From the NCBI RefSeq assembly GCF_014203025.1, contig NZ_JACHID010000010.1, positions 12,688 to 76,687 of the forward strand: 64,000 nt of DNA, written 5' to 3'. The notes under the pieces are model-generated. The model was given only the letters and a program-made list of their open reading frames with translations. It was not told the origin of the DNA and made no database searches. Of this stretch, positions 11,904 to 52,483 are shown piece after piece. The DNA is from Desulfurispira natronophila. Lineage in GTDB: Bacteria > Chrysiogenota > Chrysiogenetes > Chrysiogenales > Chrysiogenaceae. The first letter of the stretch is position 1. The number at the start of each line of letters is the position of its first letter. The translations under genes and the position numbers were made by a program.

Positions 11904-12053
11904 AGCTTGCTGAAATACTTTACATCGGCAGGCAAATGAAAAATCCTCCAGGTGCAAGGCGCTCGCAGAGCGAGGAATGAGGCGTACCTGGAGTACGCTG
12001 CAGTGACGAGCGACCGCGAGCAACACCGCAGAAGGAGGTTTTTCAGCAGCCTG
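11904..12053. repeat. MITE-like dispersed repeat, copy A (about 150 bp; terminal inverted repeats cagcttgctgaaa / tttcagcagcctg)
   Basis: About 93 percent identical (reverse complement) to 15754-15904; shares ends with copies at 17041, 31323, 40053, 43553, 52454. Confidence 0.75.
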
Positions 12054-12090
12054 TTAACGAGTGATCCACTGCCTCCTGGGGGTATCGACC

Positions 12091-12483
12091 ATGAAGCGAG
12101 ATGCCATTGTCAATCTGCTGCAGACAAAAGTTCCCAACCTGCTGGCGATCTACACTTTTGGCAGTCGCGTCCAGCAGGCGGCAACCAGTGAAAGTGATCT
12201 TGACCTGGCGGTGCTGGTAGAGGGGTACGTTGATCCCCTGTTGCTGTGGGAGCTTTCCGGTGAGCTGGCGACACTTGTTGACTGCGATGTTGATTTGCTG
12301 GATATGCGGGCGGCTTCCACGGTTATGCAGTATCAGGTTATTGTCACTGCTGAGCGCTGGTGGACACGGGATGTACAGGCCGGTATTTTCGAAGCCATGG
12401 TGCTGAGCGAAAAGACCGAGCTGGACTGTGCCCGTGCGGATTTGCTGGAAGATATTCGCCGGGAGGGGAAGATTTATGGCTGA
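12091..12483 (+). CDS. Nucleotidyltransferase-domain protein (MNT-type antitoxin of HepT/MNT toxin-antitoxin pairs)
   Basis: Pol-beta NTase motif GSRVQQAATSESDLDLAV; about 130 aa from the Met at MKRDAIVNLL. Confidence 0.75.
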   Translation: MKRDAIVNLLQTKVPNLLAIYTFGSRVQQAATSESDLDLAVLVEGYVDPLLLWELSGELATLVDCDVDLLDMRAASTVMQYQVIVTAERWWTRDVQAGIFEAMVLSEKTELDCARADLLEDIRREGKIYG

Positions 12484-12553
12484 TGATGTGCTGATTAACA
12501 AGACGGCTGACAAATCTCAGGGTGGCCGTGAGTGGTTACTCAGCAAGCTGTAA
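12476..12553 (+). pseudogene. HepT (DUF86) toxin gene remnant, truncated after about 10 conserved codons
   Basis: ATG overlaps MNT stop (ATGGCTGA); encodes MADDVLINKTADKSQGGREWLLSKL*; the first 9 residues match the canonical HepT N-terminus (M.D.[IL][IL]NK), then it diverges and stops. Confidence 0.4.
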
Positions 12554-12645
12554 AGCGTAAAGCGGATGAAACTCACTTCGGAATTTACTCTTGCGCCTGC
12601 AGGTGGTAATCTGCAGCAGTCCATCTTGCCAGAGGAAGGGGTTTC

Positions 12646-13659
12646 ATGAAAATATCCGCATCACTGTACAGCAGCAAAGACACGCCGCTCCCCCAGCTCA
12701 TGCAGGAGCTGGACAACCTGCATATTGACTATATTCACATTGACTGCAACGACGATCTTTCTGTCTTTGACGACATTGAGGAGATCCGGACGATCAGTCG
12801 CACGCCTATTGATATTCACATTATTTCCGACGATCCGGCCAAGTTTTATCCCGCCCTGCAGAAGCACCGCCCGGAACTGGTGACGTTCCAGCACGAAAAT
12901 CTGCGCGGGCCCTTGCCTCCGCTGCCGGTGGGTGTCAAGAGTCGTATCGGGGTGGCTTTTGTCAGCGATACGCCCATCGAGGCCTTTGAGCACTATCGTC
13001 CCTTGTGCTCTTTTGTGCTCTTTATGACCACGGTGCCGGGCCAGAGTGGCGGTCAGTTTGATCAGGATACTTTCCAGAAGATTCGCCAATTTCAGGAGCG
13101 TTACCCCGGTACTCGCATCCATGTGGATGGCGGGGTCAACGACGAGGTCTCCTTTATCCTGCGCAACATGGGTGTCTACTGCAGTGTTTCCGGCTCCTAC
13201 CTGATGCAGGCCAAGGACAAGCCCGGTGCCCTGCTGCGTCTGCGCAGCCCCTACATCGAGGGGCAGTACCGGGTGCGGGACTTTATGATTCTGCGTCATG
13301 AGCTGCCGGTGATTGCTGAAAGTGACGCCAATGATCTGCGTCAGCTGCTGGTATGTGTTCACGAATCGCGCCAGGGTTTTGCGTTGGTGGCGGATGCGGA
13401 CGGCAAGCTGGCGGGGATTGTCACGGACCGGGATATTCGCGCTGCTCTGATCAAGCACCTGGATGACCTGGAGGCGATCTGTTCCAGCGATCTCATTAAC
13501 CCCCGGCCGGTAACCGTCGATGGTGACAGTACTATTGGCCAGATGCTGGAGCTGATTCGCGACTGCCCCTTCCCCATTCGCTTTCTTCCGGTGGTGGACT
13601 CCGACAACACCTTGATTGGAGCCATTGCCTTTAACAATCTCATCAAAGGTGAATTATGA
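12646..13659 (+). CDS. Two-domain protein: N-terminal ribulose-phosphate 3-epimerase-fold (RPE-like TIM barrel) + C-terminal CBS-domain pair
   Basis: RPE-like motifs IHIDCNDD (cf. IHVDVMDG), IDIHII (cf. LDVHLM), VLFMTTVPGQSGGQF (cf. VLLMSVNPGFGGQ.F), IHVDGGVN (cf. IEVDGGV); C-terminal CBS-like repeats (VTDRDIRAALIKHLDDL, IGAIAFNNLIKGEL); good RBS gaggaagggg. Confidence 0.7.
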   Translation: MKISASLYSSKDTPLPQLMQELDNLHIDYIHIDCNDDLSVFDDIEEIRTISRTPIDIHIISDDPAKFYPALQKHRPELVTFQHENLRGPLPPLPVGVKSRIGVAFVSDTPIEAFEHYRPLCSFVLFMTTVPGQSGGQFDQDTFQKIRQFQERYPGTRIHVDGGVNDEVSFILRNMGVYCSVSGSYLMQAKDKPGALLRLRSPYIEGQYRVRDFMILRHELPVIAESDANDLRQLLVCVHESRQGFALVADADGKLAGIVTDRDIRAALIKHLDDLEAICSSDLINPRPVTVDGDSTIGQMLELIRDCPFPIRFLPVVDSDNTLIGAIAFNNLIKGEL

Positions 13660-14657
13660 TTGTCCACATAGCCTCGGATGCTCCCAAAGAGCTGATTCAG
13701 CAGTGTGTTGAGCACTATCAGGCGTTTGTTATTGACGATGCTGGCCAGCAAGCGCTGGTCACCTCGTCCCAGGTTAAAAAGCTGGATGAGCGTTTTACTT
13801 CACTGGCCGAGCGCACCTTCGCTTTTGACAGTGATATCCAGCTGGCCAGTCGCCTGTATCAGGGCGGCACCCGCACCATTGAACTCCCCGGCGGCATCAC
13901 GGTTGGTGGTGACACTGGCCATACCGCTTTTATCAGCGGTCCCTGCTCAGTGGAGTCGGAAGGACAGATCGAAACCGTAGCTCAGGCATTGCAGCAAAGT
14001 GGCATCAAAATACTGCGGGCGGGTTGTTACAAACCCCGCACCTCGCCATACTCCTTCCAGGGAATGGCGGAAGAGGGACTGCAGATACTGGACCGGGTCC
14101 GCAAAAAGTATGGCCTGGGTATTATCACGGAAGTGCGCGATGCGACCCACGTAGATCAGGTGATTGAGTACAGCGATATTATCCAGATTGGCGCCAAGGC
14201 CATGTATGATCAGGGCATTTTGCGCCGCTGCGCCACTATTCGCAAGCCGGTGCTGCTGAAGCGGGGCTTTGGCACCAACCTGCAGGAGTTTGTGCAGGCG
14301 GCGGAATTTATCCTCAGTGGTGGTAACCCCAATGTCATGCTGTGCGAGCGCGGCATTCGCACCTTCGAGACCAAGACCCGCTTTACCCTGGATCTGTGCG
14401 GTGTGGCCTATTTGAAAGAGCACACCAATTTGCCCATTTTTGTCGATCCCTCCCATGCCATGGGCTACGCCTATGGTGTGGCCGACCTTACCCGGGCTAG
14501 CACCGCCATGGGTGTAGATGGCTTGCTCATCGAGTCCCATCCAAACCCCAGGGAGGCCCTTTCTGACGCCTCCCAGCAGCTGACGCTGGAGCAGATGGCC
14601 CAGCTGCGACAGAGTATTGTCCCCGTGGCCCAGGCCGTGGGTCGCACGGTGGTTTGA
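13656..14657 (+). CDS. 3-deoxy-7-phosphoheptulonate (DAHP) synthase, class I-beta, Thermotoga type with N-terminal ferredoxin-like regulatory domain
   Basis: LRAGCYKPRTSPYSFQG, LCERGIRTFETKTRFTLDL, VDPSHAMG, LLIESHPNPREALSDASQQL match DAHPS I-beta signatures (not KDO8P synthase); N-terminal MIVHIAS... region about 95 aa; start overlaps upstream stop. Confidence 0.85.
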   Translation: MIVHIASDAPKELIQQCVEHYQAFVIDDAGQQALVTSSQVKKLDERFTSLAERTFAFDSDIQLASRLYQGGTRTIELPGGITVGGDTGHTAFISGPCSVESEGQIETVAQALQQSGIKILRAGCYKPRTSPYSFQGMAEEGLQILDRVRKKYGLGIITEVRDATHVDQVIEYSDIIQIGAKAMYDQGILRRCATIRKPVLLKRGFGTNLQEFVQAAEFILSGGNPNVMLCERGIRTFETKTRFTLDLCGVAYLKEHTNLPIFVDPSHAMGYAYGVADLTRASTAMGVDGLLIESHPNPREALSDASQQLTLEQMAQLRQSIVPVAQAVGRTVV

Positions 14658-15745
14658 GCATGGCACAACCTGTCGCCCTTGTTCCGGTGCTGGATGAGGC
14701 GTGTGTTCAGTGGCAGTACGGTGGCAAGCCTCTGTGTCTCAGTGTGGCCGATACGCTGGCGGCACTGCTGGGCGCGGAGCAGGTGGTATTCCTCACCCCC
14801 CGGGCCTCAGTTGCCGCCGCTCTGGATGGCAGTGGCTATTCGCTGATTGCTGTCCATGCCCGTGACAGCATCAGCCGGATACAGCAGCATCCGGCCCTGC
14901 GGGAATCTGCCGGGCAACCGCTGCTGGTGGTACCCCCCCAGTGGCCCCTTTGTCGTGGGGGTACCCTGAAGGCACTGCTGGACAGTGCTGCCGGAGGCGC
15001 TTCGGGCCTGGCCCTGCCGCCACTTTTAATGCGCAACCAGGCTGTTCATGCCGCCCTGATGGCTCAGATAGAGCAGTGGGAAACGCTTCCTCTGGACCAG
15101 TTTACGGTGCCTGCGGCCCTGTCAGCTGGCAGTGGCAGGCCGGTAGCCCTGCAGATGGATGGCAGTGAGTCTTTGGCTGTTTTTTGCGAGGATGACCTGA
15201 TGCGCTTGCCGGTTTCGTACGTCTCTCCCGGTCATCAGCCGGATATTCGCATGCTGGTACTGGATGTGGATGGGGTTATGACCGATGGCGGCATGTACTA
15301 TCTGGAAACGGGCCAGGAGCTCAAAAAGTTCTCTACCCGCGATGGCATTGCCATCAAACGTCTGCTGCGCATGGGAATCGAGGTGGCTTTCCTCAGCTCC
15401 GGCCTGAATACCAGTCTGCTGGAGTCCCGCGCTCGTACGCTGGGCGTGCAGCGCCTCTATGTGGGAACGGACGAAAAGACGGTTATTTTGCAGCAGTGGC
15501 TGGATGAGATGGGACTGCTGCCGGAGCAGATTGCCTATATCGGGGACGATATCAACGATCTGGGTGTGATGGCCATGGTGGGCCTCAGCGCCTGCCCTGC
15601 CGATGCGGTGGACATGATCCGCCAGCGGGTACAGGTGGTGTTGCAGAGCCGTGGTGGAGAAGGCTGTGTGCGGGAGTTTGTGGGACGTTACATCTGCTCC
15701 GACGAGGAGGCGGTGGCCCGCAGGAATCAGAGTCACCCACAGTGA
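14654..15745 (+). CDS. Fusion: N-terminal about 190-aa domain of uncertain identity (weak KdsB/cytidylyltransferase-like GGKPL segment) + C-terminal KdsC-type HAD phosphatase (3-deoxy-ulosonate-phosphate phosphatase, YrbI family)
   Basis: C-terminal IRMLVLDVDGVMTDGGMYY...STRDG...YIGDDINDLGVM closely matches KdsC; N-domain lacks the canonical PARxxSxR P-loop; start overlaps upstream stop. Confidence 0.7.
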   Translation: MSMAQPVALVPVLDEACVQWQYGGKPLCLSVADTLAALLGAEQVVFLTPRASVAAALDGSGYSLIAVHARDSISRIQQHPALRESAGQPLLVVPPQWPLCRGGTLKALLDSAAGGASGLALPPLLMRNQAVHAALMAQIEQWETLPLDQFTVPAALSAGSGRPVALQMDGSESLAVFCEDDLMRLPVSYVSPGHQPDIRMLVLDVDGVMTDGGMYYLETGQELKKFSTRDGIAIKRLLRMGIEVAFLSSGLNTSLLESRARTLGVQRLYVGTDEKTVILQQWLDEMGLLPEQIAYIGDDINDLGVMAMVGLSACPADAVDMIRQRVQVVLQSRGGEGCVREFVGRYICSDEEAVARRNQSHPQ

Positions 15746-15753
15746 AGCATTAG

Positions 15754-15904
15754 CAGGCTGCTGAAAAACCTCCATCTGCGGTGTTGCTCGCTGTCGCTCG
15801 TCACTGCGACGTACTTCAAGTACGCCTCATTCCTTGCTCTGCGAGCGCCTTGCACCTGAAGGATTTTTCATTTGCCTGTCGATTAAGAGTATTTCAGCAA
15901 GCTG
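15754..15904. repeat. MITE-like dispersed repeat, copy B (full length, 151 bp)
   Basis: caggctgctgaaaaacctccatctgcggtgttgctcgc...catttgcctgtcgattaagagtatttcagcaagctg; inverted orientation relative to copy A. Confidence 0.75.
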
Positions 15905-15932
15905 TTAGCCAACCAAGAGTTATTCAGAATAA

Positions 15933-17039
<1,107 letters not shown>

Positions 17040-17040
17040 C

Positions 17041-17137
17041 CGGCTGCTGAAAACCCTCCATCTGCCCTGGCTCTGCGAGCGCCTTGCACCTGAAGGGTTT
17101 TTCATTTACCTGTCGATAGAGAGTATTTTAGCAAACT
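17041..17137. repeat. MITE-like repeat, copy C (about 55-bp internal deletion)
   Basis: cggctgctgaaaaccctccatctgc...ctctgcgagcgccttgcacctgaagggtttttcatttacctgtcgat...ttttagcaaactg. Confidence 0.7.
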
Positions 17138-17148
17138 GTTAATTAGCC

Positions 17149-17190
17149 AAAAAAGCGGCCCGGTGGACACATATAAGTCCACCGGGCCGC
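17149..17190 (-). terminator. Rho-independent terminator downstream of katG (minus strand)
   Basis: Perfect 14-bp stem gcggcccggtggac / gtccaccgggccgc with 8-nt loop; on the minus strand followed by a TTTTTT run. Confidence 0.8.
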
Positions 17191-17220
17191 TGTGGTTGTA
17201 ACCTGACACAGGGTTGATAA

Positions 17221-19485
<2,265 letters not shown>

Positions 19486-19950
19486 TTACTTGCTGGGGAG
19501 AGAGTTTACTTTGTTGCACTGGTGACATACCCCCTGAATCTCTACCTGGGTTTTCTCCACCGAACCCATGGTGTGAACCTCCGGTGGAATGGTTATCTGG
19601 TCGCACTCCACACTGTAAAAGTCCCGGGCTATACCGCAGCGTTTACAGATGAAGTGGTGATGGGGGCGGGTGTTGGCGTCAAAACGGGTGCGTTCTCGCG
19701 GAGATCCCAGGGTGGCAATCAGTCCCAGGTCCAGCAGCATCCACAAGGTGCGGTATACGGTATCCAAAGATACTGTGGGAATGCGTTGGCGCACGCCTTG
19801 GTGAATAGTTTCTACGTCGGGGTGCCCACTGTGGGTGACAATTTCGCGAAAGATTTCCAGGCGCTGGTGAGTAACTTTGACCCCAGCATCGCGGACTACG
19901 GTGGAAAAATACTCAACCTTTTGCTGCACTTCGTCTGTTGAATTCTGCAC
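19486..19950 (-). CDS. perR: Fur-family transcriptional regulator, likely peroxide-responsive repressor (PerR-like)
   Basis: Fur-family fold with HHHFICKRCG...CHQC metal site; directly upstream of and co-oriented with katG. Confidence 0.8.
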   Translation of the reverse strand: MQNSTDEVQQKVEYFSTVVRDAGVKVTHQRLEIFREIVTHSGHPDVETIHQGVRQRIPTVSLDTVYRTLWMLLDLGLIATLGSPRERTRFDANTRPHHHFICKRCGIARDFYSVECDQITIPPEVHTMGSVEKTQVEIQGVCHQCNKVNSLPSK

Positions 19951-20194
19951 AAAAAAGACCTCTTCTTATTTAAGAAAAAATCTTATCACGAGGAAATGGG
20001 AAACGCAACAGGGAATGGCTGCAAGGGAGCTTGAGGTTGTTTTCTGATAGTTCAGGGTGTGATAAGCTGCGGGAGTAAAGTGGTTCCGGGTACAATGACA
20101 GCCACTTGCTCTGGTCATTCAGGGTCTCCAGTCGGCGTAACGCTATGGCCAGCGCCAGTGAGTAATTGCATTGCCGTGATTTCAGGAGCTGACT

Positions 20195-20644: not shown

Positions 20645-20716
20645 CCCATGGAACCAAATGTGAATATAAGTCTGTTTCCTTGCAATTTGTTCGTTAAACT
20701 CTGGAGGCTGCCTGCC

Positions 20717-23871: not shown

Positions 23872-23903
23872 TCCACTCAAGCACCAACAAGAAATTTCAG
23901 CGG

Positions 23904-31322: not shown

Positions 31323-31370
31323 GGGATTTATCCTCATTTGCCTGTCGATTGAGAGCATTTCAGCAAGCTG
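31323..31370. repeat. MITE-like repeat fragment, copy D (right-end 48 bp) in the 5-prime leader of the class II DAHPS gene
   Basis: gggatttatcctcatttgcctgtcgattgagagcatttcagcaagctg versus copy B aggatttttcatttgcctgtcgattaagagtatttcagcaagctg. Confidence 0.65.
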
Positions 31371-31604
31371 CTAACGATTCACGGCAGCAGTATGTTGATA
31401 TTTTCTGCTTTTTTCAAGGAAATTGCCTTGGTAATTTGTTCCGGTACTGCAGTATTGGGTTGAGGATGAATTCTGTGGTAGTATCCTGGGTTGAGTGAAG
31501 AGTGCCACTTTGCCTCCCAGAGGCCCTGTCTGCAGGTTATCGCAGTTGTTGAGGGGGTGTCTGGGCTTTTATGGTTACACACAACGTTTTCAGGAGTGTT
31601 TGTC

Positions 31605-33880: not shown

Positions 33881-34318
33881 CTCATTTCCTTTGCGATAAA
33901 GGTCGCGTTCAAAAAGACCTATCGTGCTCTTGCTGTGTCAACACAGAAGCGTCATTAACTTCATCACCTGCTTATTTCCAGAGCAAACTAAGGCCAGAAC
34001 CTAACAGGGATGAACAGGATGCAGGGGATGGGAGAGGGATGAGCTGGTAGCGTGTAAAGGATAGTTGGTAGTCGCAGCGAGCTGTCAGATAAAACCTGCT
34101 GTGGGGTGGATAAGTGTTAGTGCATCCACCAGGCAGTATAATCTTGCTCTATCGATTTCATCCCTTTCAACCCCCTCCATCCCTGTTAAGTTTCTTATCT
34201 TGTCTGCCTTTTTGTCGGCTGTTTCGTACAGTGAAGCGGGTGGCCCAAAAGCTTTCTTGCCACAAACAAAGAGTGACAATAACCGGCAGGTGAACGGTGA
34301 GACGGCATGAGTGCTGGG

Positions 34319-39966: not shown

Positions 39967-40052
39967 TCTTGAAGCTTGAAGTGTGTCGTTCGCTTACGAG
40001 AACTTTTGGCAGCGCACTTCTGCTGGGTAGCGTTGTCAGCGCTACGGTGAAC

Positions 40053-40195
40053 GGGCTGCTTAAAAATATCCATCTGCGGTGTTGGATCGCTCGTCACTGC
40101 GACGCACTCAGGTTACCTTTTGTTTCTCGCTCTGCAAGTGCCTGGCACCTGGGTATTTTTACTTGCCTGTCTACTTGCAGTGGCTCAAAAAGCTG
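40053..40195. repeat. MITE-like repeat, diverged copy E, occupying the frr-cdsA spacer
   Basis: gggctgcttaaaaatatccatctgcggtgttgg.tcgctcgtcactgcgacg...ctctgcaagtgcctggcacctgggtatttttacttgcctgtc...caaaaagctg; about 75 percent identical to copy B. Confidence 0.6.
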
Positions 40196-40238
40196 TTAAA
40201 TATTGAATTATTCACATTCATGCAAGGATAGCTCATCC

Positions 40239-41021: not shown

Positions 41022-41024
41022 GAG

Positions 41025-42373: not shown

Positions 42374-43441
42374 ATGAGTATAGTCGTTGCCCTTCTTATT
42401 CTGGGTTTTCTTATTTTCTTCCACGAATTGGGTCATTTCCTGGTTGCCAAAGCCTGCGGTGTGGGGGTAGAGGTGTTCTCCATTGGTTTTGGTCGCAAGA
42501 TACTTGGTTGGCAACATGGAGAGACCGAGTATCGTCTCTCCATGATACCCCTGGGTGGCTATGTCAAGATGATGGGAGAAAGTCTGGAGGGCAGCGATGA
42601 GGAGGCTGCTGTACCCCAGAGCAAGTCTTTTGCCCACAAGAGCGTAGGGCAACGCATGGCTATTGTGGCTGCTGGCCCTATTTTTAACTTTCTGTTAGCC
42701 ATTGGCTTATTGGCTTTGATTCACATGAACGGTGTCCCTCGCCTGGAACCGGTGGTCGGTACCGTGCAGGCGGATTCGCCAGCCTATGAGGCAGGGGTTC
42801 AGGCCGAGGATCGCATTATTGCTATAAATGGTACCACCATAAACTGGTGGGACGATATTGCCAGTGAAATTCATATTCGACCGGGAGAGCAGATCAATCT
42901 TGAGGTGGAGCGGCGTAATCAGGTTCTCAGTTTTGCCGTTATCCCAGCTGAGCGCGAAGTTGAAAATATTTTTGGCGAGCCACAGCGTATGGGATTTATC
43001 GGCATAACGGCTTCCGAGCACGTTACGACGGTACGCTACGGCCCCGTTGAGTCACTGGCGCTTGGAGTTCAGCGTACCTGGGAGCTTACCAGCCTGACAT
43101 TTCAGGCCATTGTCAAGCTTATCCAGCGTATCATTCCTGCTGATAACATCGGTGGGCCTATTATGATTGTTCAGGTAGCTTCGGATCAGGTAGAGCAGGG
43201 ACTCAACTCTTTACTGTTCTTTACCGCCCTGATTTCTGTCAATCTGGCTATACTCAACCTGCTGCCCATTCCTATTCTTGATGGTGGGCATCTGATGTTT
43301 TATCTCTATGAACTTATTCGGGGCAAGGCCCCTAGCCTCAAGGCACGAGAGTACGCCAGCCGCATCGGCATGGCCATGCTGCTGTGTCTGATGTTCCTTG
43401 CTTTCTACAACGATATACGGCGAATTGTGACTGGCGAGTAG
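42374..43441 (+). CDS. rseP: RIP zinc metalloprotease (site-2 protease, RseP family)
   Basis: HELGHFLVAKACGV (HExxH in TM1), PDZ domain, LDGGH motif near the C-terminus. Confidence 0.9.
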   Translation: MSIVVALLILGFLIFFHELGHFLVAKACGVGVEVFSIGFGRKILGWQHGETEYRLSMIPLGGYVKMMGESLEGSDEEAAVPQSKSFAHKSVGQRMAIVAAGPIFNFLLAIGLLALIHMNGVPRLEPVVGTVQADSPAYEAGVQAEDRIIAINGTTINWWDDIASEIHIRPGEQINLEVERRNQVLSFAVIPAEREVENIFGEPQRMGFIGITASEHVTTVRYGPVESLALGVQRTWELTSLTFQAIVKLIQRIIPADNIGGPIMIVQVASDQVEQGLNSLLFFTALISVNLAILNLLPIPILDGGHLMFYLYELIRGKAPSLKAREYASRIGMAMLLCLMFLAFYNDIRRIVTGE

Positions 43442-43552
43442 CGTAGCGTCAACACAGAAGTGTTGTCTGCTCTTCGTTGTAGCGCTGCATAGTGTTTTTG
43501 GAACAGGGATCGAAGAGATAAAAAATCGACAGAGCAAGACTATACTGCCTGC

Positions 43553-43650
43553 AGGCTGCTGAAACATATCCATCTGCGGGTTGCACGCTGGTCTTGTCAC
43601 GGCAGCGCACTCCATGTACGCCTTACTTCTTGCTCTGCGAGTGTCTTACA
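43553..43650. repeat. MITE-like repeat, truncated copy F (left about 100 bp)
   Basis: caggctgctgaaacatatccatctgcgggttgcacgc...cttgctctgcgagtgtcttacacccagggg. Confidence 0.6.
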
Positions 43651-43658
43651 CCCAGGGG

Positions 43659-45242
43659 CTACGCCCGCTTCATGTGCTGGGCAAGCTGCTTCCACTGCTG
43701 GAAAAATTGCTGCCGGTATTCGTCCTGTTGCTGATGAAGACTGGCCTGAATATAGCCAATCGCCTGAAAGGTGCCCAGCAGGCTTGGGTCATTGCTGCGC
43801 GCCAGGCGTCGGGTCATTTCTTCAAGGGCCTGAGCTTGTACAGAAGCATCGTTGAAGCGGCCCAGGCTGTTCTGAATTTTTTTGAAGCGCTTCAAGTTGG
43901 CAAACTCCCTGGGGAAAAGGTTTCGTAGATGCTCCACCAGGTAGCGGTACTTTTTAACAGCGATGCGCAGGGCGTGGATATCCCGGTCTGCGCTACGGGA
44001 GCTCAGCCTTCGTCCTTTTTTCCGGAGACGCTGCCAAGCAGTGTCGATAGTGTCTGTGGCAGCTTGGCCAATTGAAACCGGTTCGGCATCACCTTCTCGC
44101 TGCTCGGGCAGCCGGCAGTCGGTAAGGATTGCGGTCAGGTTCCGGTAGCGGTGGGAACTGAAAAGTCGACGCAGCATGGCGTATCCCCGGTCGCGACGTT
44201 GCCAAAGGTGAACCTTTACGGGCATCAGCTTCTCCTGCAGTTCCTTGGGCAGAGTAGCTTGCAGAATATCCAGTTTTTCCAGAAAAACGTCCATGTCCCG
44301 CACCAGTCCCGTTCTTCTCCCCAGCCACTGTAGTTCCCCTTCCAGCTTTTGCCCGCCAGATCCAAACCACGGGGCAAAATTTTTCATTAGGGCGCGGATG
44401 CGTCGCAGGGCAATGCGATAGTCGTGGAGAAACTCTACATCCAGCATTTCTTCGATTCCTTGCTGGTTGCGCTGCATTACGCTCAGGCAGTGGTCTATCA
44501 TGTCTTTGATGGCTTTGGTAGCCGGCACCTGGGGGTCCAGCCCCGATGGTTGCCAGGGCTGGTAGTCGCCAGGGACCAGTCCTGTAGCTGCAGCGCCGGT
44601 GGCAAAAAGCCCATCAACTGGCAGGCTTTTTGTACTTTGCAGTCCGTTAACGATGGTGAAAAAGTTTTGGGAGAAATCATTGCTGCGTTTTTTCAGAGGC
44701 AGGAGCTGCAGCAGCGTGTTCAGGGAGGTGTGCTGCTCAGTACGGGCAGACTCAGCGGTTAACTGCAGAACCTGTAACTCCAGCGCTGGCTGGCCACTCT
44801 CATCCACAATCTCCCAGCGACGAACGGTGCCCTCCAGGGTCAGCATGGGCAGCAGTGCCCGATTTTTAGTGTGCTTCTGAACCTTTTCAGCCAGGCTGAC
44901 AGCAGGAAGTCTGTTGGCAAAAGACGGAAAAATACCGGAAACAGAAGCCTGCTCCACTTTTTTCCCTTTCTCTATGAGGGTTGCCACGTATCCCTGGTGA
45001 TGAGGCCTGCTGGTGAGTTGTTGTTTTGCGGCAAAGAGGCGCCAGTCGAAAGTGTCGTGCCAGGTGCACTCGAAGTTTTCATCTGCCAGGCTTCGCAGGG
45101 AGACAAAGTGGCTCAGTGCCTGCAGTATGGCGTCTTGCTCATGTTTGTCGGTCAGGGAAAAGAGCTTGGCCTGTTGGTGCATGATGTTCTCCCCCGGAAA
45201 GGGTAAAGGAGCAAAAAGGAGCTGTTCACGATAAGGTTTCAC
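43659..45242 (-). CDS. CYTH (triphosphate tunnel metalloenzyme) + CHAD domain protein
   Basis: C-terminal CHAD-type helical repeats (IHALRIAVKKYRYLVEHLRNLFP, ALRRIRALMKNFAPWF); N-terminal CYTH-like region; start may be the internal Met at 45183. Confidence 0.7.
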   Translation of the reverse strand: MKPYREQLLFAPLPFPGENIMHQQAKLFSLTDKHEQDAILQALSHFVSLRSLADENFECTWHDTFDWRLFAAKQQLTSRPHHQGYVATLIEKGKKVEQASVSGIFPSFANRLPAVSLAEKVQKHTKNRALLPMLTLEGTVRRWEIVDESGQPALELQVLQLTAESARTEQHTSLNTLLQLLPLKKRSNDFSQNFFTIVNGLQSTKSLPVDGLFATGAAATGLVPGDYQPWQPSGLDPQVPATKAIKDMIDHCLSVMQRNQQGIEEMLDVEFLHDYRIALRRIRALMKNFAPWFGSGGQKLEGELQWLGRRTGLVRDMDVFLEKLDILQATLPKELQEKLMPVKVHLWQRRDRGYAMLRRLFSSHRYRNLTAILTDCRLPEQREGDAEPVSIGQAATDTIDTAWQRLRKKGRRLSSRSADRDIHALRIAVKKYRYLVEHLRNLFPREFANLKRFKKIQNSLGRFNDASVQAQALEEMTRRLARSNDPSLLGTFQAIGYIQASLHQQQDEYRQQFFQQWKQLAQHMKRA

Positions 45243-45406
45243 TGCGATGGTTAAGCGCCATTGGTTGCACAGGGTTGGGTTTTGTGTACCGGCGGTAACT
45301 ATATCAGGCTCACGAGGCGGGAGATGTAAAATTTTTGCAAATAAATTTTGTGGCAGCCTCTGGCCAGATCACTGCTGACCAAAGCTTTTTACGTTACGGT
45401 TCGTAG

Positions 45407-45850
45407 CTACATTTGGTTTTTCAAAAAAGCAAAAGGCTCTTGCCGAAAGTCCACGGTATCACTGTGGCGCAGGGTGCGCAGCTGCTCCCTCTGTGGAGTT
45501 ACAACTCGCTGCTCCATGTCGAGAGGGCTTTCCCGCTCTGCGTAGTAGACCAGGTCGTCGATAAGGAAACTGAACTCTCCACCGGACAGGGTGAACTCCA
45601 TATCTTTTGGGGGGGCAAGGGAGCCCAGGGTCAGTGAAAGGCTGGAGATGGCTTCCCGAAAGTCGTCCATATCAGAAATTTCATCAGTATCAATCTCGTC
45701 AAAATGCAGGTTGACTCCCAGTTGTGGGATTGGGTTGCTATACTCAATATCGAAGGCGGAAGAGTCAAGGTTCTCTTCCCTCTCTGCAGGATTGGCATAA
45801 GCTCCCATGGGTACGAGCAGCAGGGCTATATAGTGGATGAGTTTAGTCAT
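45407..45850 (-). CDS. hypothetical secreted acidic protein
   Basis: Signal peptide MTKLIHYIALLLVPMGAYA; 147 aa; no recognisable domain. Confidence 0.45.
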   Translation of the reverse strand: MTKLIHYIALLLVPMGAYANPAEREENLDSSAFDIEYSNPIPQLGVNLHFDEIDTDEISDMDDFREAISSLSLTLGSLAPPKDMEFTLSGGEFSFLIDDLVYYAERESPLDMEQRVVTPQREQLRTLRHSDTVDFRQEPFAFLKNQM

Positions 45851-46007
45851 GACGGCTCTCCTGTTTGAAAAAAATCCTTAAAACCCCTAAACTCTCTCGT
45901 GCTTGCCTGGATATTGAGTGCTCAATGCTTGTTTGGGCTGTGAAATAATCCTGCAGGGCTTATCTCGATAATACTTCAAGAAACTTTTTAAATAAAGGAT
46001 TACCACA

Positions 46008-46274
46008 ATGAGAACCTATAGAATACGGTTTTTTGGCAAGGTTCAGGGGGTGGGGTTTCGCAACTATGTGCGCATGGTTGCACAGTCTTTGGGGGTCTGC
46101 GGTGTGGCTCGCAATATGGCCGATGGCTCTGTGCATGTCGTTGTCAATCTTGACGATGATACTCGCCTGGCATTTTTGGAAAAGGTTGCTTCTGGTCCGC
46201 CGCTGTCCAGAATCGACCATATGGATGACGCAGAAGTCGATGATCGTTCATTTGATGGATTTTCCATATGTTGA
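46008..46274 (+). CDS. acyP: Acylphosphatase
   Basis: VQGVGFRNYV signature; 88 aa. Confidence 0.9.
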   Translation: MRTYRIRFFGKVQGVGFRNYVRMVAQSLGVCGVARNMADGSVHVVVNLDDDTRLAFLEKVASGPPLSRIDHMDDAEVDDRSFDGFSIC

Positions 46275-46849
46275 CACTCAGTACAGAGCTTCTTGGCAGC
46301 TTTGTTGCTATGGGGCGAGTGACCTATGAGAAGGATCTTAACAGCTCACATTCGGGTAATATGTCCTGTCGCGATAAAGCGGGAAATTTGCATATAACGC
46401 GTAGCGGGGCCATGTTAGGCTCACTGGAAGCCGCCGATGTGGTGAGCTTTGCTCCCGGCAGCCCCCCTCATCCCCGGGCTTCCCGGGAGTTGCCAGTGCA
46501 CCAGGCTGTTTATGAAAGCAATGCGGATGTCGGTGCCATTGTGCACACCCACGCTCCCCATGCCATTACCTTGGCCTGGAGCCATGATAAGATTGTTCCT
46601 GCCGATGCCGAAGGCCACCACTATTTGCCGCGCATACCAGTGGTAGAGTGTGTGGATCCCATCGGCTCCCAGGGGTTGGCCAGGGCTGTGGCCGGTGCCT
46701 TGTGCTTTAGCTCTTCTGTTATTGTGCGTTCTCACGGAGTGTTCAGCGCCGGTAGCGATCTGGAAGAGGCTACTCTTTATGCCTGTTGTACAGAAAGTAT
46801 CTGCCGCCTTCTCTATATGCGCTCGCTGTATCAGGCAGGAATCAAATGA
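46268..46849 (+). CDS. Class II aldolase/adducin-family protein
   Basis: GNMSCRD...ITRSG..., HTHAPHAI metal-site motif typical of class II aldolase family; 193 aa. Confidence 0.8.
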   Translation: MLTLSTELLGSFVAMGRVTYEKDLNSSHSGNMSCRDKAGNLHITRSGAMLGSLEAADVVSFAPGSPPHPRASRELPVHQAVYESNADVGAIVHTHAPHAITLAWSHDKIVPADAEGHHYLPRIPVVECVDPIGSQGLARAVAGALCFSSSVIVRSHGVFSAGSDLEEATLYACCTESICRLLYMRSLYQAGIK

Positions 46850-47550
46850 GCATGGAGCGAGTTGCACTTATTCTTGCCGGAGGGACGGGACAGCGCATGG
46901 GGAGTGCTGTGCCCAAGCAGTACCTGGAGCTGAGTGGCAGGCCGGTTTTGCAGCATACCCTACAGCGCTTTGTGGATTTTTGCTTCTTTCAGCGCTTTGT
47001 GCTCGTGCATCGTTGTGAGGATCAGGCGTGGATAGAGGGAATTCTCAGGCAGGTAGAGACCAAGTATCCCGTGCACCTGGCCCTGGCGGGTAGTCATCGG
47101 GCTGAGTCGGTTCTGAATGGCCTTGAAGCAGTGCCTTCATCCGTATCTGGCCAGGTCTACATCCATGATGGCGTGCGCCCTTTTGTGCAGCGCTTTCACC
47201 TGGAAGCTCTGAGTGAGTGTTTACAGCAGTATGCCGGCGCCATTCTGGCCTGCCCAGCCCATGATACGGTCAAGGAAGTGGCGCGTTTTCCCTCCATAGC
47301 CCGCACACTGGATCGACGTTCGCTCTATCTGGCCCAGACACCGCAGGCCTTTGAGCTGGAGACGATTCGCCATGCCCTGCGCCGCGGCACCGAGGGGCTT
47401 ACCGATGATGCCTCAGCGCTGGAGCGCGATGGCGTGGACGTTGCCGTTGTGGAAGGAAGTCGCAGCAATATCAAGATTACCACTCCCGAGGATATGCTGC
47501 TGGCCGAGGCAATTCTTGGCCAGCAGGAAAAAAACAAAAGAAGCCTATAG
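46846..47550 (+). CDS. ispD: 2-C-methyl-D-erythritol 4-phosphate cytidylyltransferase
   Basis: VALILAGGTGQRMGSAVPKQYLEL, ...YIHDGVRPFV; ATG overlaps upstream stop (ATGA). Confidence 0.9.
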   Translation: MSMERVALILAGGTGQRMGSAVPKQYLELSGRPVLQHTLQRFVDFCFFQRFVLVHRCEDQAWIEGILRQVETKYPVHLALAGSHRAESVLNGLEAVPSSVSGQVYIHDGVRPFVQRFHLEALSECLQQYAGAILACPAHDTVKEVARFPSIARTLDRRSLYLAQTPQAFELETIRHALRRGTEGLTDDASALERDGVDVAVVEGSRSNIKITTPEDMLLAEAILGQQEKNKRSL

Positions 47551-47747
47551 GGACGGTTTGGCGAAGACAGGTCACTACCATAGCATTTACGACAGTATTA
47601 CCACTGGGTTGAGTCATCTGCATGACTTCTTCAGTAGTAATGCCTCCTTCCCCTGAGGCACTCGCTGGTGTTACCGTAAAATTTCTTGATTTTTTCTTCT
47701 CTGACCCTCAGAATTATTGTAATAATAATATGAGACTGGGGTGCGGG

Positions 47748-49838
47748 ATGCGGTTGTTTTTGTTGGCACTGTTATGGTTATTGCTTTTGATGTCCTGTGG
47801 AAGCAGGCAAATGAGTGATTTTCCAGATGGTCAGGATTTTCTTGATAGTGCCATTGTGGCTGATGATTTCGTGACCAGACCAAATCCCTTCTATGAGCCC
47901 CAACGTCTTCCCAGTATCGCGGGCCTCCCGGAGGTTTCGGGCGTTATTCGCGACGCTTCGCACGAGAACCTCTTTCGCCTGCTGCTGGATGAAAGTCGCA
48001 TCAGCTACGCCTTCGAAGGCGATCTTCCCGGCCATACCTCCTTTTTTCTGCGTGACAACGTCAATGTAGCCGAGGCCCTGCATGTGTTGGCTGACTCCGC
48101 CGGACTGCACCTGGGAGTGCGGGATGGAATGCTGATTATCAGCGATCAGGCCCAGCGCACATTCTATCTGGACTATCTGGCGCGCGGGGCAGTCTCTCCC
48201 GCCTCTGCACGGCAGGACTGGGGATACGGAACCGACCGCCCTTCGCCCCTGCATGGCCGGGAAGACAGCTACGCCCGGCCTGAGCGCAATCGCCTGTGGG
48301 ATATGATCCGCGAAAACCTCAACCAGTTGCGCGGTGAAGATGGTCGGGTGGTGATCAACGATGTGGCGGGAACGGTTTTTGTTGCCGATCACCCCCGCGC
48401 CATAGCCCGCATGGAGCGCTACCTGCAGTCGGTGCGCAGTATTTACGAGCAGCAGGTAGAGGTGGAGGTGAAGATTTTGCAGGTTTCTCTGTCTGACGCG
48501 CTCACACTGGGCATGGACTACTCGGCCCTCTTTCAGGCCCGGGGAGGGCGCACCCCGGTGGCTTTCAATCTGCATGGAACTGCGGGTGAAAGCGGGGCCA
48601 GCCTGGGGACCGGGACGGGAGATCAGCCCGGTGAGGGCACAGTCCTGGATCACACGGTCGGGGTTATAAATCCTGGTAAATTTGCCGGTTTCATCAACTT
48701 TCTGCAGACCCAGGGCCATGTTCAGGCACTGTCCAATCCCACCGTTACTACCCTGAACAATGTTACCGGCACGGTCTACTCCACCCGTACATACCCCTAC
48801 GAAATCACCACCACCGAGGATACCGGCAACGTCCGCGAGGCGCGAACCACCTACGAGGACGTGCGCGTTGGGGTGTCGCTGACCGTAACGCCCTACATTG
48901 TTGCCAACGGCGATATCATGCTGGAAATTGTGCCGGTAGTGGGGGAGCTGTATGAGGAGTACGGCGGCGATGGCAGTGGCGGTCGTTACAAGCCCCAGAC
49001 CGTGGAGCAGTCAATCCAGACGATATTGCGGGTGCGCAACAATCAGTCGTATTTCATCGGCGGTCTGGTTTACGAAAAGTCCAGCCGCACGGAGCGGGGA
49101 ATTCCCTGGCTCCGGGACTTGCCTGTCATGGGCTGGCTCTTTGGGTCCCGGGGCAATGCTTTGTCTCGCCAGGAGCTGGTGCTGGTTCTGACCCCCCGCA
49201 TCGTCAGCGGTGAGCACGTAACCCGGCAGCGCACCCATGTGGATTTTCGTGAGGAGACCATTCACTACGGCCTGCTGGAGGAGCCGCTGGCTGCGACGGT
49301 GGAGTCACTGCCAGATGCAGGTGAAGCTGGCGTCCTGCGCATCGAAGACATGGGAACCTTCTATCTGCACCGTGGGCTCAACCACCTGCAGGAAGGTCAC
49401 TATCACGAAGCGGTCCATGCCCTGAACCTGGCGCTGGAATTTGCTCCCCTCTGCCCTCTGGGGCGTCCCTATCTGGCTCTGGCCCACCGTGAACTCAACC
49501 AGAACACCCAGGCCATACGCCTGCTTTCGGCGCACATCAACCTCCACCCCGAGGATAACTGGTCCCGCTATAATCTGGCCCACTGGCACTATGAACAGGG
49601 AAATCTGGAGCAGGCTCTGCGCCACTATCGCAGCCTGGACCTGCGTGACCATCCGGCGGTGCAGAACAATATCGCCGTCATTCTGGCCCGCCAGGAGCGG
49701 CACAGCTCAGCGCTGCAACTGTGGGACGAATTGCTGGATACTTCAGCGCGCTGTGCCGCTCTGCTCAATCTCCAGCAAATACCGCCCGATGACCGGGAGC
49801 GCGACGAGGTGTATGAGCGTAAGCGCCATGAATGTTAA
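47748..49838 (+). CDS. Secretin (GspD/PilQ/MshL superfamily) lipoprotein with fused C-terminal TPR-repeat domain
   Basis: Lipoprotein signal LLLLMSCG; secretin C-domain IGGLVYEKSSRTERGIPWLRDLPVMGWLFGS...LVLVLTPRIV; C-terminal about 200 aa TPR-like repeats (GLNHLQEGHYHEAVHALNLALEF..., YNLAHWHYEQGNLEQALRHYRSL). Confidence 0.75.
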   Translation: MRLFLLALLWLLLLMSCGSRQMSDFPDGQDFLDSAIVADDFVTRPNPFYEPQRLPSIAGLPEVSGVIRDASHENLFRLLLDESRISYAFEGDLPGHTSFFLRDNVNVAEALHVLADSAGLHLGVRDGMLIISDQAQRTFYLDYLARGAVSPASARQDWGYGTDRPSPLHGREDSYARPERNRLWDMIRENLNQLRGEDGRVVINDVAGTVFVADHPRAIARMERYLQSVRSIYEQQVEVEVKILQVSLSDALTLGMDYSALFQARGGRTPVAFNLHGTAGESGASLGTGTGDQPGEGTVLDHTVGVINPGKFAGFINFLQTQGHVQALSNPTVTTLNNVTGTVYSTRTYPYEITTTEDTGNVREARTTYEDVRVGVSLTVTPYIVANGDIMLEIVPVVGELYEEYGGDGSGGRYKPQTVEQSIQTILRVRNNQSYFIGGLVYEKSSRTERGIPWLRDLPVMGWLFGSRGNALSRQELVLVLTPRIVSGEHVTRQRTHVDFREETIHYGLLEEPLAATVESLPDAGEAGVLRIEDMGTFYLHRGLNHLQEGHYHEAVHALNLALEFAPLCPLGRPYLALAHRELNQNTQAIRLLSAHINLHPEDNWSRYNLAHWHYEQGNLEQALRHYRSLDLRDHPAVQNNIAVILARQERHSSALQLWDELLDTSARCAALLNLQQIPPDDRERDEVYERKRHEC

Positions 49839-49900
49839 CAGGCTGCTGTAGTACTGTCCTTTTTTCCCCATTCACAGTGCTTTGGCACTCGCGCCTGCTT

Positions 49901-51685
49901 CTATTCGGCTGTCACATCGTGCAGGTAGAGGGAGGCGTAGGCTCCGTCGCGGGAGATAAGCTCGCTGTGACTGCCCTGCTGAGCAATGCGACCATCCTCA
50001 AAAACGACGATGTGGCGGGCCTGGCGCACAGCGCTGAGGCGGTGGGCCACGATGATGGTGGTGCGCTCCTGCAGGAAGGGCTGCAAGGCCCGGTGCAGCG
50101 ATCTTTCGGTCTCCACATCCAGGGCCGAGGTGGCTTCGTCCAGAATCACCACCCGCGGATTTTGCAGAATCATACGGGCAATGGCCAGTCGCTGGCGCTG
50201 TCCCCCGGAAAGCTTCACCCCTTGCCGCCCCACCATGGTTTCAAGCTGAGCGGGCATTTTGCTGACGATCTCTTCCAGCTGCGCCATGCGCAGGGCCTGC
50301 CACAGCTCCTCATCGCTGCGTTCACGTCCCAGGGTCAGGTTCATGCGGATGCTGTCGTGAAACATGGGAGGATGCTGCAGAACGGTGGCCACATGAGTGC
50401 GAATGGTTTCGTAGCCAATTTCCTCCATGGAGGCATCCCCGTAGCAGATACGTCCCGAGTCGGGCTGGTAAAACCCTAGCAGCAGTTGTATCAGGGTGCT
50501 CTTTCCCCCTCCGCTGGCCCCAACGAACGAGACAGAGCTGCCCCCTGCAATGTGCAGGGAGATATCCTGCAGCACGGGAGCCTGGGGAGAATAGCCGAAG
50601 CTTACATTTTCCAGGCTGATGGAAACCGGCTGCTGGTTGTCAAAGGGATTTTTGCGAGGTGGGTGGCGCGGTTCCTCCTCCAGGGCCAGGGCATGGTTGA
50701 TGCGCCCCAGAGCGCCGCTGGCGGCGTTGTAGCTGTACTGTATGTTGAGCACTTCTTGCACCGGCCCCATGATAAACCACAGGTAGTTGAAAACAGCAAA
50801 CATCTGGCCAATGCTGAGGTCGGAAAAGAGCACGGTCAGAATAGCCATGGCGCGGAAAATATCGAAACCGAACATAAAGATAAGGAAGGAGAGGCGGCTG
50901 GCGGCCTCGCTCTTCCAGGCGTAGGCGTCGGCGTTGCGGCGGATATTGGCCGCATAGAAGCGCAGGCGATCAAAGAAGGCCTGCTCTCTTCCCGAGGCCC
51001 GCACCTGCGCCAGCGCATCCAGAGTCTCGGCCAATGCCTGCTGAAAGACCTCCACCGCCTCGTTTTCCTGGCGTTTGAGGTGCTTGACCCTTCGACCCAC
51101 GGCAATGGTGAAGTAGACCACAATGGGGTTGAAGAAGATGAGAAAGAGGGCCAGTTGCCAGTGGATGAGCAGCAGGATCGCCCCTGCACCCAGTATGCTG
51201 AGAATCGAGATCAGGGCCTTGGCGATGGTGGTTCCCAAGAACTGGTCAATGGTGTCCACATCATTGACCATGTGAGCGTTCATGGAGCCGGAGCCGATAG
51301 TCTCGTACTGTGCCATGGAAACCCGCTGCAACCGGGCCAGCATGTGGCAACGGATGCCGTAGGTGATCTCCTTGGCGATGGCGGTGAACTGACGCATTTG
51401 CCAGACACCCAGTGTTGCCGCCACCGAGCGCAGCATAAGCGTGAGCACGAGTATGACGGTAACGGTAGCTACCGCTCCGTGCCAGTTGGTGGGAAGCAGC
51501 CATTGACTGAAGCTTACCAGGAAGCTCGGCTGATCCAGCAGAACCTCGTCAACCAGCAGGGGAATAAGCAGTGGCACAGGCACACTGGCCAGCATGGCGA
51601 CCACGGCAATGGCATTGGCAAGCAGCAGCGATTTCTTATGGCCAAGAACCAGTTCGGTAATATGTTTCCAGCTGTAGTGAGACAT
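49901..51685 (-). CDS. ABC transporter permease/ATP-binding protein (MsbA-like exporter)
   Basis: Six-TM N-domain; Walker A GASGGGKST, signature LSGGQRQRLAIAR, Walker B ILDEATSALD; start set at MSHYSWKHITEL. Confidence 0.85.
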   Translation of the reverse strand: MSHYSWKHITELVLGHKKSLLLANAIAVVAMLASVPVPLLIPLLVDEVLLDQPSFLVSFSQWLLPTNWHGAVATVTVILVLTLMLRSVAATLGVWQMRQFTAIAKEITYGIRCHMLARLQRVSMAQYETIGSGSMNAHMVNDVDTIDQFLGTTIAKALISILSILGAGAILLLIHWQLALFLIFFNPIVVYFTIAVGRRVKHLKRQENEAVEVFQQALAETLDALAQVRASGREQAFFDRLRFYAANIRRNADAYAWKSEAASRLSFLIFMFGFDIFRAMAILTVLFSDLSIGQMFAVFNYLWFIMGPVQEVLNIQYSYNAASGALGRINHALALEEEPRHPPRKNPFDNQQPVSISLENVSFGYSPQAPVLQDISLHIAGGSSVSFVGASGGGKSTLIQLLLGFYQPDSGRICYGDASMEEIGYETIRTHVATVLQHPPMFHDSIRMNLTLGRERSDEELWQALRMAQLEEIVSKMPAQLETMVGRQGVKLSGGQRQRLAIARMILQNPRVVILDEATSALDVETERSLHRALQPFLQERTTIIVAHRLSAVRQARHIVVFEDGRIAQQGSHSELISRDGAYASLYLHDVTAE

Positions 51686-52036
51686 GGAGCCCTTTCGCAA
51701 AAAATTGTCACCATGTTGATTATTCGGGCTGTCCATAATAGGGCAATTGCCTGCCAAAGTCATCAGCGCAAAGGATGTTTTTTCGGCAGTTCCCGAGCGG
51801 CTATGGGGACGTTTGAATTGGCTATTTTGCCGTTGTTTTGAACCAGACTCAAGTTGTTGTTCCCGGGAGACCAACGATGTGATCGAGGGTTAACTCCCTT
51901 GGGGTCAATGGCTGCGGTGTTAAAGGAAATTTCAGGACAGGAGACTTATAGCTAGAGAGAGGAGTGACGGTTTTTACTGAAGTGCCTGCAAATCTGTGGC
52001 ACAATACCACCTCAATAACATTGACGGAGCAAAACC

Positions 52037-52453
52037 ATGAACCGAATTTTCTGCATGGCACTGGCAATAGTAATACTCGCCTCTACCCACTCTCTTGGGC
52101 GCACCATCAGTGGCTGTCAGGTTGGGCCCGAAAGCTACTGTCCCGGGGTAAACTTTATGGGAGCCAATTTGCGCAGTGTGGATTTCAGCTTTAGTAATCT
52201 TGAGGGCTCACGTATGGAGTCCGCCAATTTGATGATGACCAATTTTACCGGGGCCAATCTGCAAGGGGTGAATTTTCAGTCTGCGGAGTTGCGTCGGGCC
52301 AATTTTACTGATGCCGACCTTCGCAACGCCAATTTTCGCTGGGCTCATAACATAGATACCGCCACTTTTGATGGTGCCGATCTCTCCATGGCCACCTGGA
52401 GCAATGGGCGTCAATGTCAGGATGGCTCGACTGGCACCTGCATATTTCAGTAG
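52037..52453 (+). CDS. Pentapeptide-repeat protein, secreted
   Basis: Signal peptide; tandem A(D/N)LxxANLxxANF pentapeptide repeats. Confidence 0.8.
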   Translation: MNRIFCMALAIVILASTHSLGRTISGCQVGPESYCPGVNFMGANLRSVDFSFSNLEGSRMESANLMMTNFTGANLQGVNFQSAELRRANFTDADLRNANFRWAHNIDTATFDGADLSMATWSNGRQCQDGSTGTCIFQ

Positions 52454-52483
52454 CCTGTCGATAAACGGCATTTCAGCAAGCTG
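52454..52483. repeat. MITE-like repeat fragment, copy G (right-end 30 bp)
   Basis: cctgtcgataaacggcatttcagcaagctg. Confidence 0.55.

Follow-up and report, generated by a model that had tools for sequence, protein, structure and literature searches.

A 64,000-nt stretch of the Desulfurispira natronophila genome (phylum Chrysiogenota), here called the window and taken at its whole length, carries seven copies of a short repeat. They are very probably copies and decayed remnants of a nonautonomous transposable element, a type II MITE (miniature inverted-repeat transposable element) of the IS5 family. The LeuB and Frr proteins encoded in the window are 100% identical to those of D. natronophila. 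An initial annotation of the window had called the repeats MITE-like, and that description holds: the element is small and noncoding, has terminal inverted repeats (TIRs) and a 4-bp target-site duplication (TSD), is present in multiple copies, and has an IS5-family partner with identical ends. The family is widespread and apparently undescribed; no published description of it was found in the searchable literature, which did not cover ISfinder and Dfam. The analysis yields a widely spread MITE linked to a defined IS5-family clade through identical 15-bp ends, together with a simple mechanistic reason for MITEs adjoining gene ends.

The consensus was drawn from an alignment of 32 sequences, throughout which the ends are invariant or nearly so. 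It comprises a flanking YTAR, the left end CAGGCTGCTGAAAAA, a core of ~95 nt, an end motif designated R1, a spacer of ~12 nt, and the right end TTTTTCAGCAACCTG, followed by a second YTAR. More fully, it reads YTAR, CAGGCTGCTGAAAAACGCCCATCTGCGGCGTTGCCC ... GCGGCGTAC-loop-GTACGCC ... GGGCGCCTTGCATCTGGGCATTTTTGAGCAGCCTG (R1), ~12 nt, TTTTTCAGCAACCTG (R2), YTAR. The modal length is 151 nt (53 full copies), and 13 of 15 positions agree between the consensus left end and the reverse-complemented right end. R1, an internal, inverted third copy of the end motif that had been overlooked in the initial annotation, closes a 125-nt hairpin, and the outer right end, R2, lies ~26 nt beyond it. The YTAR flank comes after R2 and not after R1, so R2 is the true right terminus.

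Putative autonomous partners were sought in metagenomes with a pattern of YTAR plus the 15-nt end in which two positions invariant in the MITE were forbidden, so that the interior was not that of the MITE. At least 120 loci were found. Among the matches listed, at least 34 loci had mutually homologous transposases beside the end, and at least 22 were complete insertion sequences (ISs; 1256-1519 bp) with CAGGCTGCTGAAAAA inverted at both ends (≤2 mismatches). Identical 4-bp flanks, TTAG/TTAG included, bordered 17 of these 22, with YTAR as the target. The partner transposases matched NCBIfam NF033581 (IS5 family) at 279 and 235 bits (cutoff, 140), as well as Pfam DUF772 and DDE_Tnp_1, and a tblastn search of plasmids with the transposase returned 297 records. 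An IS5-family element on a Bradyrhizobium ottawaense plasmid has 15-bp ends identical to the MITE’s CAGGCTGCTGAAAAA and the flanks TTAG/TTAG. An element of Azospirillum sp. B510, named “IS5-like element ISAzs10 family” by PGAP, encodes a homologous transposase and has the ends CAGGCCGCGGAAAAA and CAGGACGCGGAAAAA, which differ from those of the MITE at 2-3 of 15 positions, again with the flanks TTAG/TTAG.

Similarity between the MITE and these ISs is confined to the ends, and the element is classed as a type II MITE (definition in PMC10969869) because the ends alone are common to both. Many further short elements in the same metagenome scan (96-340 bp) combine these ends and exact 4-bp duplications with different interiors, so the ends mark a wider group of MITE families. 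“Solo” left ends were considered as IS ends and rejected, being truncated copies or variants with other interiors. The MITE consensus had no blastn match among plasmids, and the family pattern was absent from viral contigs.

Target-site duplication was assessed on 47 full copies from many genomes. Exact 4-bp direct flanking repeats were present in 15, compared with 5.1 ± 2.0 expected (0 of 5,000 permutations reached 15), and flank identity over 5 bp was found in none of the 47. The flank consensus was Y-T-A-R on both sides, and asymmetric 4-mers were repeated in direct, not inverted, order (TTAG/TTAG, CTAA/CTAA, ATAG/ATAG, TTAT/TTAT). IS5 itself makes 4-bp YTAR target duplications (PMC5009759). 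The family has both TIRs and a TSD that is significant family-wide, the two structures whose lack, in the initial annotation, was to count against a MITE. From the shared ends and the footprint, we infer mobilization in trans, in the Chrysiogenota lineage likewise: the DDE transposase of the ~1.3-kb IS5-family ISs with the same 15-bp ends would move the element, and insertion at YTAR would duplicate the 4 bp, as for the partner ISs.

Copies in the window and their neighboring genes

The copies, with refined coordinates given as positions of the whole window, are as follows:

Copy A, 11903-12053 (−): full-length 151-nt MITE, in the opposite orientation to the other copies
Copy B, 15754-15904 (+): full-length 151-nt MITE (covariance model, 123 bits; E, 1e-32)
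Copy C, 17040-17138 (+): both ends retained, ~52 nt lost internally
Copy D, 31334-31370 (+): 3′ remnant with part of R1, the spacer, and R2
Copy E, 40052-40195 (+): diverged full-length copy in the frr-cdsA spacer
Copy F, 43552-~43652 (+): 5′ two-thirds of the element, without R1 and R2
Copy G, 52431-52483 (+): 3′ remnant with the R1 region, the spacer, and R2; degenerate flank, CTCG

The set thus comprises two full 151-nt copies (A and B), one internally deleted (C), one diverged (E), and three fragments (D, F, and G). A blastn search with copy B as the query recovered all seven sites claimed in the initial annotation, and both orientations are present as it had reported, with A on the minus strand and the other six on the plus strand. 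Copies A and B are mutually 89-92% identical (blastn, 89% over 167 nt; E, 7e-51), with A also found by nhmmer (E, 1e-55) and by the covariance model (121 bits; E, 6e-32). In blastn comparisons with B, copy C was 87% identical (E, 1e-21), D was 92.5% identical over 40 nt (E, 3e-9), E was 74% identical (E value, 2e-22; about 72% overall), F was 80% identical over 104 nt (E, 2e-19), and G was 78% identical over 59 nt (E, 7e-8). The covariance model scored C at 44.5 bits (E, 2e-10) and copy E at 83.6 bits (E, 2e-21); D, F, and G had covariance model E values of 0.16, 0.0018, and 0.015 and nhmmer E values of 1e-8, 7e-30, and 1e-7, respectively. Across the window copies, nhmmer E values ranged from 1e-55 to 1e-7. 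No further significant copy was found in the 64 kb (covariance model, filters off), and a further ~16 kb of flanking DNA from this strain had none.

In copy B, the left TIR occupies 15754-15768, the 125-nt hairpin 15754-15878, R1 15864-15878, and R2 15890-15904. The ends reported earlier as mutual reverse complements, CAGGCTGCTGAAA and TTTCAGCAAGCTG, do pair, at 11 of 13 positions in copies A and B. An element of about 150 bp without coding capacity had likewise been described; the full length is 151 nt, and the longest complete start-to-stop open reading frame (ORF) in any window copy is 15 amino acids. Copy B has a perfect duplication, TTAG, at 15750-15753 and 15905-15908. Copy A is flanked by TTAG at 11899-11902 (CTAA in element orientation) and TTAA at 12054-12057, copy C by CTAA (17036-17039) and TTAA (17139-17142), and copy E by TGAA on the left and TTAA (40196-40199) on the right; copy D is followed by CTAA at 31371-31374.

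Two independent Logan short-read contigs of the same strain (SRR12223112_24 and _22) break at the full-length copies, one ending within copy A (~11958) and one beginning within copy B (15853), and the 3.7-kb segment between these inverted copies assembles separately. Repeated sequence is expected to break assemblies in this way, and the breaks give no copy number. No transposase was found in the window. This, together with identities of 72-92% among copies, one deletion, and three fragments, suggests that the family is old in D. natronophila, and the window copies have probably ceased to move.

Scanning one genome per species with the conserved 5′ pattern yielded 106 stretches. For 31 of 60 full copies, a flanking TAR served as the stop codon of an ORF of ≥100 codons, versus 7.2% of background YTAR sites at the same loci. 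The stop codon was provided by the left flank in 19 cases and by the right flank in 14, and orientation relative to genes is without strong bias. YTAR holds TAA or TAG on either strand, and the target is duplicated on insertion; an insertion exactly on a stop codon would leave the gene intact, and such copies would survive. On this mechanism, copies abut gene ends because YTAR includes the stop codon and duplication restores it. No gene recurred beside the copies in an all-against-all blastp comparison of ORFs from the 106 loci, nor did a transposase, integrase, or reverse transcriptase.

Most window copies are intergenic, as first described, though not always: copy G provides the last codons and the TAG stop (52451-52453) of a pentapeptide-repeat ORF (52037-52453), and copy D overlaps the mechanically called start of the DAHP synthase ORF. 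Copy A lies between an ORF (11484-11870) and an MntA-like antitoxin gene (12061-12483). The placement of copies on both sides of leuB was confirmed, with B upstream and C downstream. Copy B begins 8 nt past the stop of a KdsC-like gene (TGA, 15743-15745) and ends 55 nt ahead of the leuB ATG (15960), while the left flank of copy C includes the leuB stop (TAA, 17037-17039); the katG terminator follows copy C at 17154-17191. Also as described, a repeat stands at the leader of the class II DAHP synthase gene, where copy D lies in the divergent region upstream of that minus-strand gene and abuts its likely ribosome-binding site (GAGGAT, complement of 31331-31336; likely ATG, ~31322). The repeat reported in the frr-cdsA spacer is copy E. 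Copy F lies between rseP (which ends at 43441) and a convergent CHAD-domain gene (43659-45242, minus strand). The accessory island at whose edge a copy had been placed was not borne out: genes for a CHAD protein, aldolase II, IspD, and a secretin lie at 43.6-52.4 kb, and neither a transposase nor an integrase was found there.

The frr-cdsA spacer, with copy E, is ~350 bp long here; at 91 bp in Desulfurispirillum indicum, the nearest genome, and 71 bp in a third relative, the other two spacers have a terminator-like hairpin only. To judge from this comparison, the difference is probably an insertion polymorphism at the genus level. The family would account for the odd spacers around leuB, in frr-cdsA, and in the DAHP synthase leader, for the stop codon donated by a remnant, for spurious ORF extensions through copies, and for the short-read assembly breaks at both full-length copies. 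Roles of the copies as terminators, promoters, or recombination breakpoints, raised in the initial annotation, are speculation. Possible side effects of insertion are that the A5/T5-flanked hairpin could act as a terminator in either direction, that G could donate a stop codon, and that remnant D could matter beside the DAHP synthase ribosome-binding site.

Co-oriented MITE copies flank leuB in both genera (window, 15754-17138; D. indicum locus, 9496-14411), with different neighboring genes, and copy F is located where synteny with D. indicum stops after rseP. Both arrangements are compatible with MITE-associated rearrangement, though copy positions relative to leuB differ between the genomes. 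Two D. indicum strains also differ by a ~3.7-kb two-component-system segment downstream of rseP (locus, ~13.7-17.5 kb), at the junction of which no MITE copy was detected. A composite transposon B-leuB-C was considered and is unsupported: its outer flanks, TTAG and TTAA, disagree, and B’s own flanks match perfectly.

Another reading takes the copies as integron attC-like recombination sites bounding gene cassettes, such as leuB between B and C. Co-oriented copies around leuB despite different surrounding genes, imperfect palindromes of attC-like size, and right boundaries that in about half of cases read G followed by TTAR all fit such sites. The boundaries, however, are YTAR direct duplications rather than RYYYAAC...GTTRRRY core sites, and next to the left end 23 of the 47 copies have G and 18 have A, so that the AAC core is broken. 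Moreover, core genes (leuB, frr, cdsA) occupy the intervals between copies, no integrase was seen among the neighbors examined (the window annotation is not exhaustive), no neighbor gene recurs in the 106 loci, one copy is inverted, and an IS5-family partner has the same ends. We regard attC-like sites as having next to no chance of being correct and retain the type II MITE.

Other repeats are present in the window. A 29-nt inverted pair, CAGGCAGTATARTCTTGCTCTRTCGATTT, occurs at 34130-34158 (+) and 43523-43551 (−) (two matches; 0 expected) and brackets rpsB-tsf-pyrH-frr-cdsA-dxr-rseP, its second copy abutting the left end of copy F. It begins with CAGGC like the MITE end, is otherwise unrelated to the MITE, and may be either a regulatory site common to both places or the terminus of some other element. 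At the start of the window, around Fic/DUF4172 genes, there is a direct repeat of 53 nt (91% identical; 2291-2343 and 3990-4042) with a related inverted arm at 2153-2182; it too has no relation to the MITE. The region immediately upstream of the window carries HipBA and Fic toxin-related genes as well as nifHDK, and the first ~12 kb of the window looks like a defense/toxin-antitoxin neighborhood.

Distribution across bacteria

The 106 stretches came from Syntrophaceae, Desulfuromonadales, Geobacteraceae, other Thermodesulfobacteriota, NC10/Methylomirabilota, Rokubacteria, Acidobacteriota (Sulfotelmatobacter, Terriglobales), and Eremiobacterota (Baltobacteraceae), often several to a genome; such spread beyond D. 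natronophila had not been foreseen in the initial annotation. The 151-nt family is multicopy in metagenome-assembled genomes (MAGs) of Desulfobacterota, Methylomirabilota, Rokubacteria, Acidobacteriota, and Eremiobacterota, with at least 12 matches in one MAG and at least 5 on one NC10 chromosome. In other genomes, nhmmer matches span nearly the whole element. Copy B is 80% identical to a D. indicum copy and 67-72% identical to deltaproteobacterial, NC10, and acidobacterial copies. Lineages possess their own subfamilies. A 3′-end pattern specific to D. natronophila gave no matches in genome and metagenome collections, because that end is lineage specific.

D. indicum shares the family, with five copies within 21 kb around leuB and a further full copy between a radical-SAM gene and feoA. 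Density was seven copies in ~80 kb of D. natronophila and six, together with a short fragment, in 41 kb of D. indicum; by extrapolation, if this density is typical, a genome would hold on the order of a few hundred copies.

Some family members in other genomes have nested insertions, such as added GGTACCTTAAGGTACC palindromes within the apical loop or, after GTTGCCC, a hairpin of ~36 nt; the element hairpin tolerates nested additions. One truncated copy in another genome is interrupted by the apparent 3′ part of a tRNA gene (GGTTCGATTCC T-arm motif), which suggests later integration or deletion there.

Hairpin structure and weighing of the readings

Folded as the initial annotation had proposed, copy B reached −46.8 kcal/mol (plus strand) and −53.7 kcal/mol (minus strand), with z-scores of −2.3 and −3.7; z-scores for copies A and B ranged from −2.3 to −3.7. 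The family consensus forms one long hairpin (−66.8 kcal/mol on the plus strand; −78.1 kcal/mol on the minus strand), its stem lying between A5 and T5. Because RNAalifold by itself produced a poor consensus, a structure of 41 pairs was drawn manually on the 32 sequences and then tested. In it, 90.3% of cells pair, versus 33-45% when partners are slid; both sides change in 15 pairs, versus 3-5 in slid controls and 7.2 in shuffles; and the covariation score is 0.130, versus ≤0.066 in controls. Lineage-specific stems swap at one place (GCCC..ATCC/GGAT..GGGC, GCCGCGC/GCGCGGC, GCTCGC/GCGAGC), and copy E has compensatory stem changes (AAAAATATCC with GGGTATTTTT). The MITE shows covariation at positions 16-21 and in the inner helices, which is not explained by transposase binding because the two ends of the autonomous ISs differ at positions 16-21.

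Mismatches are strand asymmetric in the family alignment, with 56 C.A cells versus 26 G.T cells and ~65 pyrimidine-pyrimidine versus 3 purine-purine, and a conserved 2×2 TC/TC internal loop would read as tandem GA/AG on the opposite strand. The asymmetry may stem from the history of an element of foldback origin or from selection acting on a single-stranded fold. It would also suit palindromes of REP/REPIN type, or derived from IS200/IS605, that are moved single-stranded by a Y1 (HUH) transposase, which are likewise palindromic, intergenic, and multicopy. Such elements, however, are without target duplication and TIRs, and here the 4-bp duplication is significant; the identical ends belong to DDE-type IS5-family elements, 151 nt far exceeds REP units, and no Y1 transposase gene recurs near copies at the 106 loci. 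Mobilization of this kind is accordingly very improbable.

More weight attaches to the proposal that the element is, or became, a functional structured nucleic acid, with the ~125-nt hairpin selected and mobility secondary; it is compatible with a MITE origin. The forms considered are an RNA element (bidirectional terminator, mRNA stabilizer, or RNase target) and a single-stranded DNA structure. Pairing and covariation above slid and shuffled controls, compensatory replacement of lineage-specific stems, covariation at positions 16-21 beyond what transposase binding explains, asymmetric mismatches with the better consensus fold on the minus strand, and the A5 and T5 bordering the stem all favor it. 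Yet no Rfam (15) family was matched at gathering score over the window, and a search at a permissive E value around copy B gave only a chance-level narK match (12 bits; E, 5.3). Copies lie in both orientations relative to flanking genes with no clear bias, and decay is evident in those of the window (deletion, fragments, 72% identity). None of the window copies was picked up by a simple terminator scan, and a separate canonical terminator follows copy C. Kinship alone can beat shuffles without selection, and the structure was taken from the consensus of the same alignment.

On balance, we consider a functional structured element a minority possibility, and purifying selection on the interior hairpin across at least five phyla, with a functional single-stranded fold (RNA or DNA), is similarly unlikely, though not negligibly so. 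The evidence for such selection is the compensatory stem changes, the conserved 2×2 TC/TC loop, and mismatches that form wobble or purine-purine pairs on one strand only. If true, the hairpin could serve as a structural intermediate in MITE transposition or, once domesticated, as a terminator or transcript-stability module brought precisely to stop codons. The full-length conservation of a noncoding 151-nt element in Chrysiogenota, Desulfobacterota, Methylomirabilota, Acidobacteriota, and Eremiobacterota makes the family a test case for why such an element is conserved.

Several observations weigh against a decayed IS5-family type II MITE, which nonetheless stays by far the preferred reading. 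A perfect duplication is kept by 15 of 47 full copies only, and in the window by B only; the flanks of copies A, C, and E agree at 3 of 4 positions, and the remaining window copies are truncated. No transposase with these ends was present in the ~120 kb of Chrysiogenota sequence examined. The cross-phylum taxonomy rests on MAGs, some contigs of which could be misbinned. The frr-cdsA spacers are too diverged to align and give no exact filled and empty pair. Finally, the interior is unusually conserved across phyla, with compensatory changes, which is not predicted by a neutral decaying parasite alone.

Comparison with known systems

The Bradyrhizobium and ISAzs10 ISs share with the MITE the CAGG...AAAAA ends and the 4-bp YTAR duplication. 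Unlike the MITE, which is 151 nt long and noncoding and has a third, internal end copy, they are ~1.3 kb long and encode a 375-amino-acid DDE transposase. The end sequences of Escherichia coli IS5 differ from those of the MITE, and its transposase falls under a different NCBIfam model from the partner transposases. E. coli IS5 resembles the MITE in its 4-bp YTAR duplication and its bias to noncoding DNA (PMC5009759).

Correia (Neisseria) and ERIC (Enterobacteriaceae) elements, like this MITE, are whole-length imperfect palindromes of 100-160 nt that lie beside, or are cotranscribed with, genes, and effects on transcripts via RNase III or RNase E are documented for them (PMC10969869). The likeness is one of functional analogy, limited to general behavior: hosts differ, there is no apparent sequence or end similarity (compared by description only), and, unlike for this MITE, the sources name no parent IS with identical ends. 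Chunjie, a MITE of Geobacter uraniireducens, comes from a deltaproteobacterial lineage that also carries the present family. It is 178-235 bp long and A+T rich, with 21-bp TIRs and 9-bp direct repeats (PMC3184786), and the two are different families.

Among general classes, the match is to type II prokaryotic MITEs, which like this family are small, noncoding, and multicopy, with TIRs, a TSD, and a stable hairpin, and which resemble ISs in their TIRs only and are presumed to be mobilized in trans (PMC10969869). Most described bacterial MITEs have been reported from one species or genus, whereas this family is about 67-80% identical over its full length across at least five phyla.

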